Assembly: GCA_963701965.1 (NCBI GenBank)
Contig: OY969695.1
Span: 2,304,001 to 2,368,000 of the forward strand
Direction: 5' to 3'
Source: an uncultured Gemmatimonadales bacterium
GTDB taxonomy: Bacteria > Gemmatimonadota > Gemmatimonadetes > Gemmatimonadales > Gemmatimonadaceae
DNA length: 64,000 nucleotides
Shown here: positions 12,785 to 20,027 of the stretch, piece after piece
Position numbering within the stretch: the first letter of the stretch is position 1
How the letters are laid out: every line of letters starts with the position of its first letter
Program-made: the position numbers and the translations under genes
The notes under the pieces: model-generated
Seen by the model: the letters and a program-made list of their open reading frames with translations, nothing else
Databases searched by the model: none
Told to the model about the DNA's origin: nothing

Positions 12785-13662
12785 TCGACTCGGTCGGAGT
12801 GCTCGGCGGTGGGCTCATGGGGAGCGGCATCGCCGAGGTTTCGGCACGCGCCGGTTTGCCGACGTACGTCAGAGAGGTCTCGGCGGAACTGGCCGACAAG
12901 GCGCGGCGGGCCATCGAGAAGTCGCTGGAGCGCGGCGTCGATCGCGGCAAGCTGACGCGGGGGGAGCGCGACGCGGCGCTGGCGCGCCTCGCGTTCGGCA
13001 CCGACCTCCAGGCCGCGGCCGTCGGCAAGATCGTGATCGAAGCGGTCGTCGAGGACATCGAGGTCAAGAACCACCTGTGGCGAGAGCTGAACCGGCTGGC
13101 GAAGCCCGAGACCATCTTCGCGTCGAACACATCGAGCCTCACGATCGCCGCCATGGCCATGGCCAGCGGGCGACCGGATCGGCTGATCGGGCTCCACTTT
13201 TTTAATCCCGTGCCGGTGATGCCCCTGGTCGAGGTTGTCCGCACCATTGGGACGAGCCGGGAGACGTTCGATGCGGCGGTCGCGCTGGTGACGCGGCTGG
13301 GCAAAGAGCCGATCGCCGCCAAGGACGCATCGGGGTTCATCGTGAACCGGCTCCTCGTCCCCTACATGCTGGACGCCGTGCGGGCGTTGGAGCAGGGGGT
13401 CGGCGCGACCCACGCCATCGATACCGCCATGCGGCTCGGCACGGGTCACCCGATGGGGCCCCTGACGCTGCTCGACTTCGTTGGCATCGACACGGCGTGC
13501 CGGATCGCCGAGATCATGTTCGACGAATACCGGGAAGAGCGGTTCGCCCCGCCGCCGCTGCTGCGCCGCATGGTACTCGTGGGCTGGTTCGGCCGGAAAT
13601 CCGGCCGCGGGTTCTACGACTACGCGACGGACCCACCGCAACCCACCGACCTAGGTCTGTAG
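12781..13662 (+). CDS. hbd: 3-hydroxybutyryl-CoA / 3-hydroxyacyl-CoA dehydrogenase
   Basis: GGGLMGSGIA Rossmann motif, ASNTSS, GLHFFNP, GFIVNR and PMGP. Confidence 0.93.
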   Translation: MIDSVGVLGGGLMGSGIAEVSARAGLPTYVREVSAELADKARRAIEKSLERGVDRGKLTRGERDAALARLAFGTDLQAAAVGKIVIEAVVEDIEVKNHLWRELNRLAKPETIFASNTSSLTIAAMAMASGRPDRLIGLHFFNPVPVMPLVEVVRTIGTSRETFDAAVALVTRLGKEPIAAKDASGFIVNRLLVPYMLDAVRALEQGVGATHAIDTAMRLGTGHPMGPLTLLDFVGIDTACRIAEIMFDEYREERFAPPPLLRRMVLVGWFGRKSGRGFYDYATDPPQPTDLGL

Positions 13663-15212
13663 TGCAGGGTCCGCCCGGATTTCTCGGCGCGTTCCGCGAC
13701 GACGTTCCCGCCCGCGCCGTGTACTCCGAGGCCGCGGGCATCGCGCGGATCACGCCGCTCGCCGTCGCCGTTCCCACGAGCGCCGACGACGTCGTAACGC
13801 TGGTCCGCTGGGCGAAGGCCACGCGGACGCCGCTCATCCCGCGGGGATCGGGGAGTAGCATGGCGAGCGGCGCGATCGGCCCCGGGGTCATCGTCGATCT
13901 GAGCCGCCTCGATACGATGCAACCCGTGGACGCGGCGCACCGCCGGGTGTGGGTCGGCCCGGGCGCGCTGCGCGACGCCGTCGATGCGGTCGCGGCGCGC
14001 GAGGGGCTGCGCTTTCCGGTCGACCCGTCGAGCGGCGCCTTCTGCACGATCGGCGGAATGGCCGCCACGAACGCCGCCGGCGCGCACGCGCTGCGCCTCG
14101 GCGCCATGCGGCGCTGGGTCACGGCGCTCGACTGCGTGTTCGCCGACGGCCGTCGCGAAACGATCCGCCGCGGCGGGGGCGCCGCCGCGCGTCCGGCGCT
14201 CGGGGTCAGAAAAAATTCCTCGGGATACGCGATCGGCGGGGAACTGATCGATCTGCTGGTGGGCAGCGAGGGCACGCTGGCCCTTTTCGTCGGCATCGAG
14301 TTGGCGCTGGACGCGCGGCCGGCGGCCACGGCGAGCATCCTGGCGGCGTTCCCCACCCTGGAGTCCGCGGTGGCCGGCTCGGCGGCGGCCCGTGACGCGG
14401 GCGCGGCGGCCTGCGAGTTACTCGACAAGACGTTTCTCGACGTCGCCGAGGGCGCCGCGGCGGCGGCGGGATGTCCGCCGCGGACCGAGGCGGTGCTCTT
14501 GATCGAGATGGAGGGCGGCGCCGCGGGCGCCTACGCGCTGGGCCAGGCGTTGGCGCGCGCGGGCGCGAGCCGCGTCGACGTGGCCCGCGATCCGGCGGCG
14601 GAGCGGGCGCTGTGGGCGCTGCGACATGCGGCCAGCCCGATTTTGGCGCGGCTGGATCCGGCGCTCAAGTCCATGCAGTTCATCGAGGACGGCGCGGTGC
14701 CGCCGGTCCGCCTCGCGGAGTACGTGCGCGGGGTGCGCGAGGCGTTGACGCGACACGGTGTCCGCGGGGTCATTTTTGGACACGCGGGCGATGCGCACAT
14801 CCACGTCAATCCGCTGATCGACACGCGCACGCCCGACTGGCGCGACCGGGTCGAAGCGCTCCTGGCCGACGTCGTGGACCTGACGGCGCGACTTGGCGGG
14901 ACGCTGAGCGGGGAGCACGGCGATGGGCGGCTTCGGACCCCACTGCTCGACGCCGTGTGGGACGCGGCGGCGCGCGAGTGGTTCGCGGACGTGAAACGCC
15001 AATTCGATCCGGACGGCATTCTGAATCCGGGCGTGAAGGTCCCCGTCCCCGGGCAGCGGGCGCTCGAGGACATCAAATACGATCCCGATCTCCCGGCGCT
15101 GCCGGCTGCTGCTGCCGCGGTGCTGGCCCGGGTCGAGCGCGACCGGGCATACGCGGCGTCGCGTCTCGCGTTGCTCGACGCCGCCGCTCCGCCTCGGGAC
15201 CCCGTCTCCTAG
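13662..15212 (+). CDS. FAD-binding oxidoreductase (GlcD / D-lactate dehydrogenase family)
   Basis: IPRGSGSS, TIGGMAATNAAG, GSEGTL, GHAGDAHIH, SGEHGDG and FDPDGILNPG motifs. GTG overlaps the upstream stop. Confidence 0.88.
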   Translation: MQGPPGFLGAFRDDVPARAVYSEAAGIARITPLAVAVPTSADDVVTLVRWAKATRTPLIPRGSGSSMASGAIGPGVIVDLSRLDTMQPVDAAHRRVWVGPGALRDAVDAVAAREGLRFPVDPSSGAFCTIGGMAATNAAGAHALRLGAMRRWVTALDCVFADGRRETIRRGGGAAARPALGVRKNSSGYAIGGELIDLLVGSEGTLALFVGIELALDARPAATASILAAFPTLESAVAGSAAARDAGAAACELLDKTFLDVAEGAAAAAGCPPRTEAVLLIEMEGGAAGAYALGQALARAGASRVDVARDPAAERALWALRHAASPILARLDPALKSMQFIEDGAVPPVRLAEYVRGVREALTRHGVRGVIFGHAGDAHIHVNPLIDTRTPDWRDRVEALLADVVDLTARLGGTLSGEHGDGRLRTPLLDAVWDAAAREWFADVKRQFDPDGILNPGVKVPVPGQRALEDIKYDPDLPALPAAAAAVLARVERDRAYAASRLALLDAAAPPRDPVS

Positions 15213-15235
15213 CACGGCATTGTGCCCCTATCTTT

Positions 15236-15276
15236 GATCTCGCCGGATCGGATCTCGCGCCACCGGATCTCGCGCC
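15236..15276 (+). repeat. Three GATCTCGC copies at 15-bp period upstream of thyX
   Basis: Copies start at 15236, 15251 and 15266. The last two extend to an identical 13-mer, CGGATCTCGCGCC. Confidence 0.7.
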
Positions 15277-15323
15277 TTCGCCGTCGTACCGTTCTCCCAA
15301 CTCTATTCTACCTTATAGAACAA

Positions 15324-16073
15324 GTGCTCTACCGCGCCCCGGTCGTTTCCGTGCTGTCCCGTCCCGTGTTCACGGAGCCCGCGCACTTGCCGGTGCACTG
15401 GCTCGGCGACAGCACGGACGGCGAGCGCCTCGCCGAGTTTGCCGGGCGGCTGTGCTACATGAGCCAGTCCAATCCGGCCGAGCGGGAGACCCGCGCCTAT
15501 CTGGAGAACATCAAGCGCCAGCGCCACGGGAGCGTCCTCGAGCACGCCAACTACTCGCTGCTCCTCGAGGGTGTGAGCCGCTCGCTGACGCACGAGTTGG
15601 TGCGACACCGGGCCGGCTGGGCCTTCTCGCAGTTGTCCCAGCGCTACGTCGACGAGTCCGAGGCCGCCTTCGTCGTTCCCCCGGCGATCGACGGCGACGC
15701 CGCGTTGGAGGCGGAGTGGCTCCGCCAGGTCGAGGAAGCGCAGACCACGTACGTGCGGCTGGTCGGGGAGCTCATGGAGCGCTACACGTGGGTCGCCGAC
15801 CGCGTGCACCGGCGGAAGATGGCGCGGGAAGCCGCGCGCGGCGTGCTCCCGAACTCGACGGAGACGAAGATCGTCGTCACCGCGAACGCCCGCGCCTGGC
15901 GGACGATGCTCGAATTGCGCGCGGGCGAGGGCGCCGACCTCGAGATCCGGCGACTCGCCGTCGCCGTGCTCCGGGTCCTCCGCGATGAGGCGCCCGCGTT
16001 CTTCTCCGACTTCGAGATCTACGTCGCCGACGACCGCCGCGACGCCGCGCGCGTCGGCTATCACAAGGTCTAA
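15324..16073 (+). CDS. thyX: FAD-dependent thymidylate synthase
   Basis: HGSVLEH, the RHR-x7-SQRY signature (RHRAGWAFSQLSQRY), EAARGVLP and EIR. Start uncertain (15222, 15324 or 15351). Confidence 0.93.
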   Translation: MLYRAPVVSVLSRPVFTEPAHLPVHWLGDSTDGERLAEFAGRLCYMSQSNPAERETRAYLENIKRQRHGSVLEHANYSLLLEGVSRSLTHELVRHRAGWAFSQLSQRYVDESEAAFVVPPAIDGDAALEAEWLRQVEEAQTTYVRLVGELMERYTWVADRVHRRKMAREAARGVLPNSTETKIVVTANARAWRTMLELRAGEGADLEIRRLAVAVLRVLRDEAPAFFSDFEIYVADDRRDAARVGYHKV

Positions 16074-16119
16074 ATCAGAGCAAATCGCCAGAGTCTTTCG
16101 CGAAACGCGAGACGAGTCA

Positions 16120-16148
16120 TTGCGCGACAAAATCGTAGTCGGTATACT
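16120..16148 (+). promoter_or_regulatory. Sigma70-type promoter of the ATP-grasp/GNAT/KamA operon
   Basis: TTGCGC (16120-16125), 17 bp, TATACT (16143-16148). Palindrome TTTCGCGAAA at 16096-16105. AAAGGA ribosome-binding site before ATG 16218. Confidence 0.65.
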
Positions 16149-16217
16149 CCCGCCAATTCGTAACTGGCATCGCTCTTGCGCGTCCGTTGCACGAGGCTCA
16201 CGCACGCAAAGGACCGG

Positions 16218-17396
16218 ATGACGAGAATCGGATTCTCCTACAATCAGAAGCCAGAGCCCGATGCCACGGATCGAGGGCTGAGCGCCGCGAGTGGAGCGGT
16301 CGCCGGCAACGACGAAGACCCGGCTCGGGACGACGAACCTCCCAGTAGTCGCGCCGCGGCGCGCCGACTGGGAGCCGGCGCTTTTGGCCGCCGGGCGCTC
16401 GCCGAGCTCGAAGCCGACGACGAGTTCGCCGAATGGGATGATCCCCAGACCATCGATGCCGTCGAGCACGCCCTGTCCGCGCTGGGCGAGGTCGTGCGCT
16501 TGGAGGCGACGGAAGACTTTCCCGAGCGGCTGCGCGATGCCCGCCCGGATATCGTCTTCAACATGGTCGAGGGCCTGGGCGGGGCGAACCGCGAGGCGTT
16601 GGTGCCGGCGATCTGCGAGTTCTATGGAATTCCCTATTCCGGCAGCGACGCGTTCACGCTCGCGTTGTGTCTCGACAAAGCGCGGACCAAGGAGATCCTG
16701 TCCTACCACCGGATCCCGACCGCCGCGTTCCAGGTCGTCCACCACATCGACGACCTGGCCGCGCTGCGCCGGTTGGCCTACCCGCTGTTCGCCAAGCCGC
16801 TCCACGAAGGGTCCTCGAAGGGCATCACCGAGCGGAACCTGTGTCGCACCACGACCGAGCTCGACGCCCAAGTCGGCTTTCTGCTGGAGCGGTACCACCA
16901 GCCGGTGCTCGTCGAGGAGTTCCTGTCCGGCGACGAGTTCACCTGCGCGGTCCTCGGCAATGGCGCCGCGGCACAAGTGCTGCCGATCGTCGGCATCGAC
17001 TTCGGCGCCCTGCCACCCGGCGCGCTACCGATCTACGGATTCGAGGCGAAATGGCTCTGGGACCGGCCCGACAACCCGCTGCGGATCTTCGCCTGTCCGG
17101 CGCCCATCGATGATGAGCTGCGCCAGCAGATCGAACGCGTCTCCCTGGCCGCGTACCGCGTCCTCGGCTGCCGCGACTGGTCGCGGGTCGACGTCCGATT
17201 GGACGCCGCCGGTGTACCCAACGTCGTCGAGGTCAACCCGCTTCCGGGCATGCTCCCCGATCCCGCGGACAATTCCTGCTTTCCGAAAGCAGCGCGGGCG
17301 GCGGGGATGACGTACGATGAGTTGATCCAGACGTGTCTACTCAACGCCGCCGAGCGGCAACACGTGCACATCAAGGCCAAAGGGAGAGGGGCGTGA
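16218..17396 (+). CDS. ATP-grasp amide-bond ligase, D-Ala-D-Ala ligase-like (non-canonical)
   Basis: FNMVEG, LCLDK, KPLHEGSSKGI, VEEFL, SRVDVR and EVNPLPG motifs. Lacks the GGxSxE N-terminal motif of true Ddl. Confidence 0.88.
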   Translation: MTRIGFSYNQKPEPDATDRGLSAASGAVAGNDEDPARDDEPPSSRAAARRLGAGAFGRRALAELEADDEFAEWDDPQTIDAVEHALSALGEVVRLEATEDFPERLRDARPDIVFNMVEGLGGANREALVPAICEFYGIPYSGSDAFTLALCLDKARTKEILSYHRIPTAAFQVVHHIDDLAALRRLAYPLFAKPLHEGSSKGITERNLCRTTTELDAQVGFLLERYHQPVLVEEFLSGDEFTCAVLGNGAAAQVLPIVGIDFGALPPGALPIYGFEAKWLWDRPDNPLRIFACPAPIDDELRQQIERVSLAAYRVLGCRDWSRVDVRLDAAGVPNVVEVNPLPGMLPDPADNSCFPKAARAAGMTYDELIQTCLLNAAERQHVHIKAKGRGA

Positions 17397-18445
17397 AAGT
17401 CGCGATTCTATTTGATGGCGCCTCGGCCCTGGGCAAGACGCCCGACATGCTGATCCTCGAGGCGGTCGAGGCGGTCGAGCACGTGTTCGCGGACGACGGC
17501 CACGAAGTCGTGCGCATTCCCGTCAATCCGGACGCCCGCTGGATCGAGCGAATGCGGAAGGCGAAGTTCGACCTCGCCTTCAATCTGTGCGAGGGCGTCG
17601 ACGGCGTCGCGTCGTTGGAGCCCGCGGTCGTTTCGGTGCTGGAGCTTCTCGGCGTCCCCTACAGTGGCAGCTCCAGCGCGACCACCGCCCTGTGTCTGCG
17701 CAAAGATCTGGTGAACAGCCTCCTCGACCGGTTCGGGCTCCCCGTGCCCCGTTGGTCGGTGACCCGCCCGGGCGGCGCCCTGCCCGCCGTGGGATTCCCG
17801 GCGATCTGCAAGCCGGCGGCCGAGGACGCATCACTCGGCGTGGAGCAGCGGTCGGTCGTCCGGACGGGCCGCGCCCTCGCCGAACGGATCGACGCCATGC
17901 ACGAACGCTGGAACGACGTGATCGTCCAGCGCTACATCGACGGCCGCGAAGTGAACGTGGGCATCATCGGGGACCGTGTCCTCCCGATCGCCGAGGTCGA
18001 CTTCGGCGCCATGCCCCGCGGGATGTGGCGGATCGTCTCCTATCGTTCGAAATGGGTGACCGGGAGCGACGAGGACCTCGGAGCCGCGCCCCAATGCCCG
18101 GCCGACCTCCCGTCCGAGCTCACCGCCGAGATCGTGACCGTCGCGCTCGCCGCGTGGCGGGCCGTCGGCGGCACCGGCTATGGTCGGGTCGACATGCGCA
18201 TCGACCGCGCCGGCCGCCCGTGGATCCTCGAAGTCAACGCCAACCCCGACTTGAGTCCCGGCGCCGGTCTCTCGCGGATGGCCGAGACGTTGGGACTCGA
18301 CTATGGCGCGCTCATTCGTCTCATCGCCGCGCAGGCGCTTGCCGTACGGGCGGACGTGTCGGCCGACCAGTGGGCGCTCACGCAGCAGCTGTCGGGCGTC
18401 GAGCTGACGCTCGACACCGGCGCGCCGGCCGCCGCCACCGGGTGA
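17393..18445 (+). CDS. Second ATP-grasp ligase, D-Ala-D-Ala ligase-like (non-canonical)
   Basis: FNLCEG, KPAAEDASLGV, GRVDMR and EVNANPDL motifs. GTGA overlap with the first ligase. Confidence 0.88.
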   Translation: MKVAILFDGASALGKTPDMLILEAVEAVEHVFADDGHEVVRIPVNPDARWIERMRKAKFDLAFNLCEGVDGVASLEPAVVSVLELLGVPYSGSSSATTALCLRKDLVNSLLDRFGLPVPRWSVTRPGGALPAVGFPAICKPAAEDASLGVEQRSVVRTGRALAERIDAMHERWNDVIVQRYIDGREVNVGIIGDRVLPIAEVDFGAMPRGMWRIVSYRSKWVTGSDEDLGAAPQCPADLPSELTAEIVTVALAAWRAVGGTGYGRVDMRIDRAGRPWILEVNANPDLSPGAGLSRMAETLGLDYGALIRLIAAQALAVRADVSADQWALTQQLSGVELTLDTGAPAAATG

Positions 18446-18948
18446 CGACGCGACCGCTGACTCGGCACGACCGCGAGTCACTGGAAACCCTCATCCTCGC
18501 GACCGGCGCGTTCTCGGCGTCCGAGACCGATGTCGCGCTGCAGGTGTTCGACGAAGCCTTCCCGCCCGACGAGGGCACGGGCGATCCCGACTACGCGTTT
18601 CTGGGCGTATGCGACGCCGCGGACACCGCCCGGCTCCTCGGGTACGTCTGCTATGGTCCGATTCCGGGCAACGACCGCGGATACGACGTCTATTGGATCG
18701 CGGTCCATCCCGGCGTCCAGCACCGCGGGCTCGGCACGGTGCTCATGCACGAGGTCGAGTCCCGCCTCGCCGCCTGGAGCGCCCGCCTGATCGTCGTCGA
18801 AACCTCCGGCCGGGCCGCCTACGCGCTGACGCGCGCGTTTTATGCAAGGCTCGGCTACACCGAGTCGGGCCGGGTCCGCGGCTTCTACGCTCCGGATGAC
18901 GATCGGGTGCTGTTCACCAAACGCCTAAAAAGCTCTGGTGCCGCATGA
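18442..18948 (+). CDS. GNAT family N-acetyltransferase
   Basis: YWIAVHPGVQHRGLGT acetyl-CoA motif A and RAFYARLGY. 4-bp overlaps at both ends. Confidence 0.9.
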   Translation: MTTRPLTRHDRESLETLILATGAFSASETDVALQVFDEAFPPDEGTGDPDYAFLGVCDAADTARLLGYVCYGPIPGNDRGYDVYWIAVHPGVQHRGLGTVLMHEVESRLAAWSARLIVVETSGRAAYALTRAFYARLGYTESGRVRGFYAPDDDRVLFTKRLKSSGAA

Positions 18949-20027
18949 GCGAATGGCAACAGGTCCTCAAGAATCAGAGCGTCGCGACGCTCACCGCGCT
19001 TGCCGAGCGGTTCGGGACGGAGCAGATCGACGTCGACGCGCTGGCCGAGGCCTTCGACCGGTTCCAGATGCGGATCACTCCGGCGGCCCTCGATCTCATC
19101 AAGGCCCCCGACGATCCAATGTGGCGCCAGTACGTCCCCACGGTGGAGGAGCTGGACGTCGTCGACGGCATCACGGACTCCCTCGACGAGGACGCGGACT
19201 CCCCCGTCCCCAACATCACGCATCGGTATCCCGACCGGGCGCTCTTTCTCGTGAGCCCGGTCTGCGCGTCCTACTGCCGGTTCTGCACCCGCCGGCGGAA
19301 GGTCGGCGATCCCGAGAAGATCCCGCTCAACCAGTACGACTCCGCGTTCGCCTACCTCCGGGCCCACACCGAGATCCGCGATGTGATCCTGAGCGGCGGC
19401 GATCCGATGATGCTCTCCGACCGGCGGCTGGAGTATCTGTTCGAGCAGCTCCGGGCCATCCCGCATATCGAGATCATCCGGATTGGCAGCCGGATTACGT
19501 CCCATCTGCCCGAGCGGATCACGCCCGAGTTCTGCGAGATGGTCCAGAAGTACCATCCGGTCTACATGAACACCCACTTCAATCACCCGGATGAATTGAC
19601 GCCCGCCGCCGTGGCGGCGCTGGACCGCCTGTCCAAGGCGGGCATCCCGCTGGGGTGTCAGACCGTGCTGCTCAAGGGCGTCAATGACGATCCCGTCGTC
19701 ATGAAGGCCTTGATGCATGCGCTGCTCAAGGCCCGGGTCCGGCCCTACTACATCTATATGGCCGACCAGGTCGCCGGTGGCGAGCACTTCCGAACCACCG
19801 TCGAGAAGGGACTGGAGATCATCGCCGCCCTGCGCGGGTGGACGTCGGGACTCGCTGTCCCCCACTTCGTGATCGACGCCCCGGGCGGAGGCGGCAAGGT
19901 GCCGCTCCTACCCGAGTACGTCGACGAGATCACGGACGAGAAGGTCGTGTTCCGGAACTTCCGCGGGCAGCGCTTCGAATACCGGCAGCCCAGAGCAACA
20001 GCCAAAAGCAACTCCATCAGACAATAA
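18945..20027 (+). CDS. kamA: KamA-family radical SAM/PLP enzyme, probable lysine 2,3-aminomutase
   Basis: THRYPDR, CASYCRFCTRRR, LSGGDP, HFNHPDE, QTVLLKGVND and PLP lysine in DAPGGGGKVP. Confidence 0.92.
   Translation: MSEWQQVLKNQSVATLTALAERFGTEQIDVDALAEAFDRFQMRITPAALDLIKAPDDPMWRQYVPTVEELDVVDGITDSLDEDADSPVPNITHRYPDRALFLVSPVCASYCRFCTRRRKVGDPEKIPLNQYDSAFAYLRAHTEIRDVILSGGDPMMLSDRRLEYLFEQLRAIPHIEIIRIGSRITSHLPERITPEFCEMVQKYHPVYMNTHFNHPDELTPAAVAALDRLSKAGIPLGCQTVLLKGVNDDPVVMKALMHALLKARVRPYYIYMADQVAGGEHFRTTVEKGLEIIAALRGWTSGLAVPHFVIDAPGGGGKVPLLPEYVDEITDEKVVFRNFRGQRFEYRQPRATAKSNSIRQ

Follow-up and report, generated by a model that had tools for sequence, protein, structure and literature searches.

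In this work we describe a four-gene operon from an uncultured Gemmatimonadales bacterium, located within a 64,000-nucleotide stretch of its genome (hereafter the window) and encoding two ATP-grasp ligases with the fold of the ligase (Ddl) that forms D-alanyl-D-alanine, here called lig1 and lig2, a small acetyltransferase of the GNAT type, and a KamA-family radical-SAM aminomutase (Table 1). Hundreds of bacteria from soils and sediments retain its four genes as a unit. From comparison of its sequences we propose, with a probability of roughly 40%, that it produces a small cytoplasmic, polyamine-like amide of beta-lysine, for which di- or tri-beta-lysine with a charge set by acetylation would be the likeliest form, and that its output is tuned by a ribosome pause within the first gene.

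The source genome is assembled into one contig of 5.1 Mb with 95% completeness, and its nearest relatives are Gemmatimonadales. When the four reading frames were re-read, the 4-bp overlaps GTGA, GTGA and ATGA were found at their junctions, exactly as described in the annotation originally made from the window's sequence. That initial annotation had also suggested a gene-neighbourhood comparison. We collected 80 loci as best matches to lig2, of which 56 contained enough flanking sequence for gene order to be counted, and the order lig1-lig2-GNAT-kamA was found in 54 of these 56 related loci, the GNAT gene being missing from the other two. No transporter, exporter, wall or membrane gene, nonribosomal peptide synthetase or second amino-acid pathway recurred around the operon core in the locus comparison.

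By database name and nearest structure both ligases would be taken for Ddl, and ordinary synthesis of D-Ala-D-Ala, or of a Van-type equivalent, would be the default reading. We regard it as very improbable. Both proteins match only the C-terminal domain of Ddl (PF07478) and lack the N-terminal domain PF01820, and they score under every Ddl or Van cut-off; for TIGR01205 and NF002378, with thresholds of 246 and 243 bits, lig1 reaches 155 and 187 bits and lig2 reaches 123 and 151 bits. The GGxSxE motif of Ddl, whose absence from these two proteins had been recognized at the outset, is missing throughout both families (0/150 lig1 and 0/133 lig2, or 0/283 together), whereas 146/150 lig1 and 127/133 lig2 sequences have an E[WF]D-type and an FNxxE motif, and the D-Ala site of Ddl is replaced by conserved acidic residues. 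The catalytic patterns of ATP-grasp enzymes (Lys, Arg-x-Asp and Glu-x-Asn) are retained in 134/150 lig1 and 133/133 lig2. Furthermore, a separate canonical ddl, over the cut-off and with both PF01820 and GGxSxE, is encoded elsewhere in the genome, and lig1 is dispensable, being missing from 77 of 151 genomes. The two ligases are 34% identical to one another. A structure model of lig1 adopts the Ddl fold (predicted local distance difference test score 87, falling below 50 in an apparently disordered insertion at residues 20-53), and its nearest folds are DdlB. In a quick ligase tree the lig1 and lig2 groups fall apart from each other, with deep support below 95 and a long Ddl branch, and we claim no order of events from it. 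Prediction of a lig1-lig2 complex gave a score of 0.69, below the 0.78 of one control, and carries no weight here; the suggestion in the initial annotation that the two ligases act as a heterodimer would draw its support from natural lig1-lig2 fusions.

The aminomutase is likely to be a lysine 2,3-aminomutase (LAM). As first reported, it retains the CxxxCxxC motif, both aspartates and the lysine that holds pyridoxal phosphate, and all of these are in register with Clostridium LAM (2A5H, E 4e-110), where we take the aligned residues to be D293, D330 and K337. In lysine 2,3-aminomutase these two aspartates bind the epsilon-amine of lysine. Both aspartates and the cofactor lysine are conserved in 69/70 Gemmatimonadota KamA proteins and in 52/53 other copies. 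The protein passes the KamA-family model TIGR00238 (288.5 versus a cut-off of 199.2 bits), lacks the C-terminal tail of LAM, and is the only KamA-family member in the genome. The search model for beta-lysine 5,6-aminomutase (PF09043) had no match in the genome, but it had none in any control genome either. The acetyltransferase is orthologous to PDB 2R7H, which is Dde_3044 of Desulfovibrio G20 (profile E 8e-57; Foldseek TM-scores of 0.87 and 0.92, root-mean-square deviation 1.6). Its identity as AblB, the acetyltransferase partner of LAM in osmolyte synthesis, was ruled out, as it does not match TIGR03827; indeed, no match to this model was found in the source genome, whereas the control matched in 6 of 14 genomes.

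The distribution of the genes across 151 Gemmatimonadota genomes links them further. We found lig1 in 74 genomes and an orthologous kamA in 64, one of them split by a frameshift, and all 64 lie within the 74. Eight of the ten lig1 genomes without orthologous kamA, spread over five genera, instead encode a Streptomyces-type aminomutase, which keeps both aspartates and is about 60% identical to Streptomyces proteins annotated as lysine 2,3-aminomutase; in one of these (G141) its gene is positioned directly behind GNAT. A ninth, weaker match of the same size occurs in a genome with no lig1 match (G092). Similarly, a GNAT orthologue was located elsewhere in all three genomes whose operon had lost GNAT. 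Therefore, the beta-lysine source and the acetyltransferase appear to have been kept even after leaving the operon; each of the four functions seems to be needed, with beta-lysine as the probable substrate. The Streptomyces-type gene of loci L212-L216 is accompanied by genes that, by sequence reading, encode a GntR regulator, class III aminotransferases, and aldehyde dehydrogenase-like and CoA-transferase-like proteins, a possible route for degradation of lysine or beta-lysine without kamDE.

To look outside of this set, an alignment of 11 fused ligases was used as the query for a metagenome scan, which yielded 80 loci, mostly with the order kamA-lig1-lig2-GNAT. Sequence-cluster members of 10 lig1 proteins carried the names Syntrophales, Desulfobulbaceae, Desulfurivibrionaceae, Desulfopila, Desulfobacteraceae and Fuerstiella. 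Most of 40 long lig2 relatives proved to be ligase-ligase or ligase-GNAT fusions, and single examples of kamA-lig1 and lig1-lig2-GNAT fusions were also recovered. A GNAT-deacetylase gene is present in 13 of the 80 loci of kamA-first type and a CxxCxxCC protein in seven; the deacetylase of the source genome is unlinked to the operon. By comparison, 11 of 12 kamA loci from other Gemmatimonadota classes have no such ligase nearby. One locus of that group (L228) encodes a 725-residue protein with a ligase domain, and loci L221-L226 share a uniform KamA-like protein of 645-656 residues with a long N-terminal domain and no ligase nearby.

These data suggest the following pathway. KamA would convert L-lysine to beta-lysine, as its residues and its replacement in other genomes imply. 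Each ligase would then create a single amide linkage via an acyl-phosphate, beta-lysine being the donor and the amine of beta-lysine the acceptor, and GNAT would cap a free amine, a step that the GNAT-deacetylase fusions of some operons could reverse. A short beta-lysine oligomer is favored because the operon supplies nothing else and because both ligases have acidic pockets. Thus the beta-lysine amide pathway put forward in the initial annotation, with ligases that are not Ddl, is backed by synteny, fusions, replacement of the aminomutase and retention of GNAT, whereas the palindrome that it lists is not supported as a control site (see below).

A feature that the initial annotation had not described offers a candidate for control of the operon. 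Within the variable insertion that follows the first strand of lig1, the sole conserved part among Gemmatimonadota is acidic-Glu-Pro-Pro-Ser, an instance of a short motif of the form acidic-Glu-Pro-Pro-Ser/Gly. The motif occurs in 66 of 68 parsed Gemmatimonadota lig1 proteins (six truncated and two unparsed sequences were left out) and in 116 of 119 homologues, and it follows the first position of the operon: where lig1 is first, KamA lacks it (0/70), and in kamA-first loci it lies in an N-terminal extension of KamA (46 of 52 intact copies, with 17 truncated ones left out) and is lacking from lig1 (0 of 68 parsed, 12 being unparsed). Among 120 homologues of one kamA-first KamA, a set whose query itself bore the motif and many of whose members are close kin, 105 have it, with the glutamate at residue 12 in 87 of the 105. 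Conservation extends to the codons, which are rare ones. The serine codon is AGT in 63/63 cases, against a background of 7%, and the first proline codon is CCT in 43/66 lig1 and 39/46 KamA genes, against backgrounds of 5% and 18%; the glycine codon is mostly GGT, and the third positions of the Asp and Glu codons vary. Of the genome's 2488 gene proxies, just one contains the codon-exact motif. In one locus (L184:4241-5575, oriented) lig1 carries four copies of the motif in tandem, in a repeating unit of 14 residues.

We consider this motif likely to be a translational pause or sensor that controls operon output. Slow CCC/CCU codon pairs and acidic-proline motifs act as regulatory pauses that are strongest near gene starts (PMC12856214), and high polyamine triggers a stall at a PPW motif in AZIN1 (PMC9082881), according to the portions of those two papers available to us. 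In the proposed operon, the motif would stall ribosomes near the 5′ end when rescue by elongation factor P (EF-P) is poor or polycation levels are high, and the stall would lower expression of the first gene and then, through the overlapping reading frames, of the remaining genes. A docking peptide needed once per enzyme complex would also account for the presence of a single copy in each operon, on whichever protein, and an RNA or DNA binding site is hinted at by the CCTCC core, which is complementary to Shine-Dalgarno sequences; the motif's distance from the start codon, about 12 codons in some groups and 28-45 in others, likewise favors some role other than pausing. Such roles seem somewhat unlikely, given that a peptide function leaves the AGT and CCT preferences unexplained, an RNA function leaves the free Asp and Glu third positions unexplained, and the motif loop is not docked on lig1 in the structure model. 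Indeed, a conserved RNA helix or anti-Shine-Dalgarno hairpin was rejected when no common pairing partner emerged between -170 and +120 across 67 and 46 sites. An overlapping leader reading frame ending at the motif was rejected as well, the -1-frame stop found here not being common to all loci, and so was a universal rule that the first gene carries the motif, as most of the sister family is without it.

Several observations weigh against the proposed beta-lysine oligomer and its control by pausing. The identity of the acceptor is suggested solely by the absence of other genes. A deoxyhypusine-synthase-family gene, another likely polyamine route, is present in 132/151 genomes; the product is therefore not a plain polyamine substitute, and a role for the operon in replacing polyamine synthesis was rejected. 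For KamA, the lysine 2,3-aminomutase model TIGR03820 is the best equivalog but is not reached (431 versus 525 bits), although one operon KamA elsewhere (L151) passes it at 540 bits. Most of the replacement aminomutases lie in what look like catabolic clusters, and no KamA was seen in two of the 74 genomes with lig1, one (G031) breaking off after GNAT and the other (G125) being 94% complete. Because kin are not independent, no statistic was placed on replacement or retention. Finally, within the sister family the motif occurs in only 4/21 loci with kamA and 0/7 without, and the single locus belonging to another family lacks it as well, which means that it is dispensable.

Among other products, the ligases might join beta-lysine or acetyl-beta-lysine to a polyamine or proteinogenic amino acid drawn from general metabolism. 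Two distinct ligases, at 34% identity, suggest two different amide bonds, and the widespread deoxyhypusine-synthase-family gene would fit a polyamine acceptor. Acetylpolyamine amidohydrolases belong to the same family as the deacetylase, which also counts for a mixed amide. On a Thioflavicoccus plasmid (L089:4533-10014), a related ligase occurs with dat, sbnA and sbnB-like genes and, on the other strand, a kamA of LAM type, possibly a cluster for amides of diamino acids and beta-lysine. Still, no acceptor-making gene recurs in the operon and a clear spermidine synthase was found in only 1/74 lig1 genomes, and we hold a mixed amide to be somewhat unlikely. Attachment of beta-lysine, acetylated or not, to a macromolecule, be it a lipid, a protein or a precursor of peptidoglycan, appears more doubtful. 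It is suggested by the Ddl fold, by a Nostoc cluster of LAM and a Ddl-like ligase proposed, in the available text of PMC5987646, to modify peptidoglycan, by a lone lig1 on a viral contig (L176:7998-9014) amid methyltransferase and apparently glycan-related genes, and by a related ligase on a Bradyrhizobium plasmid (L091:6084-10849) in a cluster of kamA-like, gamma-glutamyltransferase and 7TM_transglut genes. However, genes for wall, membrane or export functions do not recur in the operon's surroundings, and the genome carries its canonical ddl. Nor is EF-P a plausible target: in its PGNLR loop (L095:1498-2097) asparagine stands where other bacteria carry the modified position, and the best genome match to EpmA (TIGR00462) is below the cut-off and is LysS, which together ruled out EF-P beta-lysylation in this genome. 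As a separate observation, the KamA-like protein encoded before the related ligase in both the Bradyrhizobium plasmid and NGR234 (L090:9773-12855) has arginine in place of the first lysine-binding aspartate, and in NGR234 the ATP-grasp ligase precedes a PGA_cap gene; these clusters resemble systems for a capsule or beta-amino-acid polymer, in which the substrate would be acidic.

The product might otherwise be a neutral or zwitterionic osmolyte made by an extension of the AblA/AblB pathway for N-epsilon-acetyl-beta-lysine, a reading that we rank lower still. A LAM with an acetyltransferase follows known osmolyte logic, salt-induced in Methanoperedens according to the available portion of PMC11337218, and a sigma-54-type box (see below) would suit a stress-controlled operon. 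Yet the GNAT is unrelated to AblB at the family level, no compatible-solute transporter or channel recurs, and a high-flux pathway would be poorly served by a pause on slow codons so early in its first gene. Returning to the beta-lysine oligomer, its most far-reaching form would be a widespread ribosome-free pathway to an acetylatable oligo-beta-lysine polycation, built by the first ATP-grasp beta-lysine ligases. The pathway would sense what it makes by an EF-P-dependent stall at Glu-Pro-Pro, re-installed by evolution in a different enzyme upon a change of gene order, and would parallel in bacteria the eIF5A/polyamine sensing of AZIN1. We put this forward as speculative, and on balance improbable.

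Table 1. Features of the operon and its upstream region (positions within the window)
Feature	Position	Strand	Description
TTTCGCGAAA palindrome	16096..16105	.	present, not conserved
sigma-70-type promoter TTGCGC-17-TATACT	16120..16148	+	kept in loose form
sigma-54-type -24/-12 box TGGC-N7-TTGC	16165..16179	+	16 nt downstream of -10 hexamer
lig1	16218..17396	+	Ddl-fold ATP-grasp ligase, 392 residues from ATG
DDEPPS motif	16329..16346	+	in lig1 insertion; codons end CCT CCC AGT
lig2	17393..18445	+	second Ddl-fold ATP-grasp ligase, 350 residues
GNAT	18442..18948	+	small acetyltransferase, 168 residues, 2R7H orthologue
kamA	18945..20027	+	KamA-family radical-SAM aminomutase, 360 residues, likely lysine 2,3-aminomutase

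The GC content of the operon is in line with that of the flanking DNA. The operon is preceded by thyX and followed by an unrelated convergent gene. A FAD-linked oxidase gene and thyX (window positions 13497-16073) precede the operon in most Gemmatimonadales loci, the thyX family being found in 66 of 80, and this placement is probably conserved chromosome order. Upstream of lig1, the sigma-70-type promoter of the initial annotation is indeed present, and a loose form of it was found in all 56 upstream regions (55 relatives and the window), whereas shuffling gave 1.1 on average and 4 at most, the loose pattern having been drawn up after the sequences were seen; a generic sigma-70 scan did not list it among its promoters. 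The same 56 thyX-lig1 intervals revealed an additional box, absent from the earlier description, that fits the sigma-54 consensus: it occurs in 51/56 (shuffle mean 0.2, maximum 2), mostly 14-19 nt downstream of the sigma-70 pattern, and in 0/30 loci of a second sample drawn mostly from the sister family. The genome encodes rpoN, for which the match is split in two pieces in different frames (G000:C1:5046401-5047832) by a frameshift or assembly error. The TTTCGCGAAA palindrome of the initial annotation was found in only 1/56 upstream regions, the window's own, and has five copies in the genome; not being conserved upstream of lig1 in relatives, it was rejected as an operator and is probably there by chance. 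In the sister family, 12 of the 30 loci of that second sample (L183, L187, L189-L192, L194, L197, L198 and L201-L203) have in place of the box a leader upstream of lig1 that contains a GC-rich hairpin and a run of six T directly before the ribosome-binding site, which is like an attenuator. Rfam gave no match in the leaders of 10 loci, including this operon.

The gene set is present in about half of the sampled Gemmatimonadota (74/151) and in many Desulfobacterota and Planctomycetota, where its ligases are misannotated as D-Ala-D-Ala ligases; soil and sediment bacteria may therefore commonly make a small molecule that has gone unrecognized. If the proposal is true, it adds beta-lysine-specific ATP-grasp ligases and a function for structure 2R7H, and the motif bears on whether bacteria use an EF-P-dependent stall within an enzyme gene as a polycation sensor. 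As to the claim that the pathway was undescribed, our literature search, which did not cover Iyer et al. 2009, where the neighbourhood may be described, found no characterized product of this gene set. Transfer of beta-lysine by a LAM and a Ddl-like ligase had, on the other hand, already been proposed for Nostoc. According to the available text of that 2018 paper (PMC5987646), the Nostoc operon encodes LAM, SET and one Ddl-like ligase, and is predicted to move methylated beta-lysine onto an unknown acceptor. Compared by description, its 'D-Ala-D-Ala ligase 3'/MXAN_4097-like amidoligase is likewise a Ddl-like ligase without the N-terminal domain beside a LAM, but that cluster has one ligase, SET methyltransferases and a MATE pump where the operon described here has two ligases and a GNAT. 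The present gene set is thus a variant of a predicted, uncharacterized kind in which LAM is paired with Ddl-like ligases.

The operon resembles other known systems in part. As in AblA/AblB (PMC11337218, from the portion available), a lysine 2,3-aminomutase adjoins an acetyltransferase, but here the GNAT is a 168-residue protein of 2R7H type, two ATP-grasp ligases are added, and KamA is under the AblA cut-off. For 2R7H itself (Dde_3044) we found a structure and the name 'putative D-alanine N-acetyltransferase' but no activity in the literature; the available part of PMC8836040 mentions Dde_3047 only and not the operon. With D-Ala-D-Ala and Van ligases, lig1 and lig2 share the fold and the catalytic Lys, Arg, Asp, Glu and Asn, and they differ in the replacement of GGxSxE and of the D-Ala-site His, in their position outside of wall clusters and in being dispensable. 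Similarly, EpmA/EpmB (PMC2821294, in the text available) include a LAM homologue without the C-terminal multimerization tail, but KamA scores much higher as a LAM than as an EpmB (431 versus 228 bits), EpmA is lacking, the EF-P tip is Asn, and the operon is not beside efp. Finally, MgtL and CadC (PMC12856214) and the upstream open reading frame of AZIN1 with its PPW motif (PMC9082881), as far as the accessible portions of these papers describe them, share with the motif acidic residues, Pro-Pro and the slow codons CCC and CCU, all located near the 5′ end, together with a link to polycations in their control, whereas the predicted pause motif of this operon lies inside a working enzyme gene and is carried by different enzymes depending on gene order.

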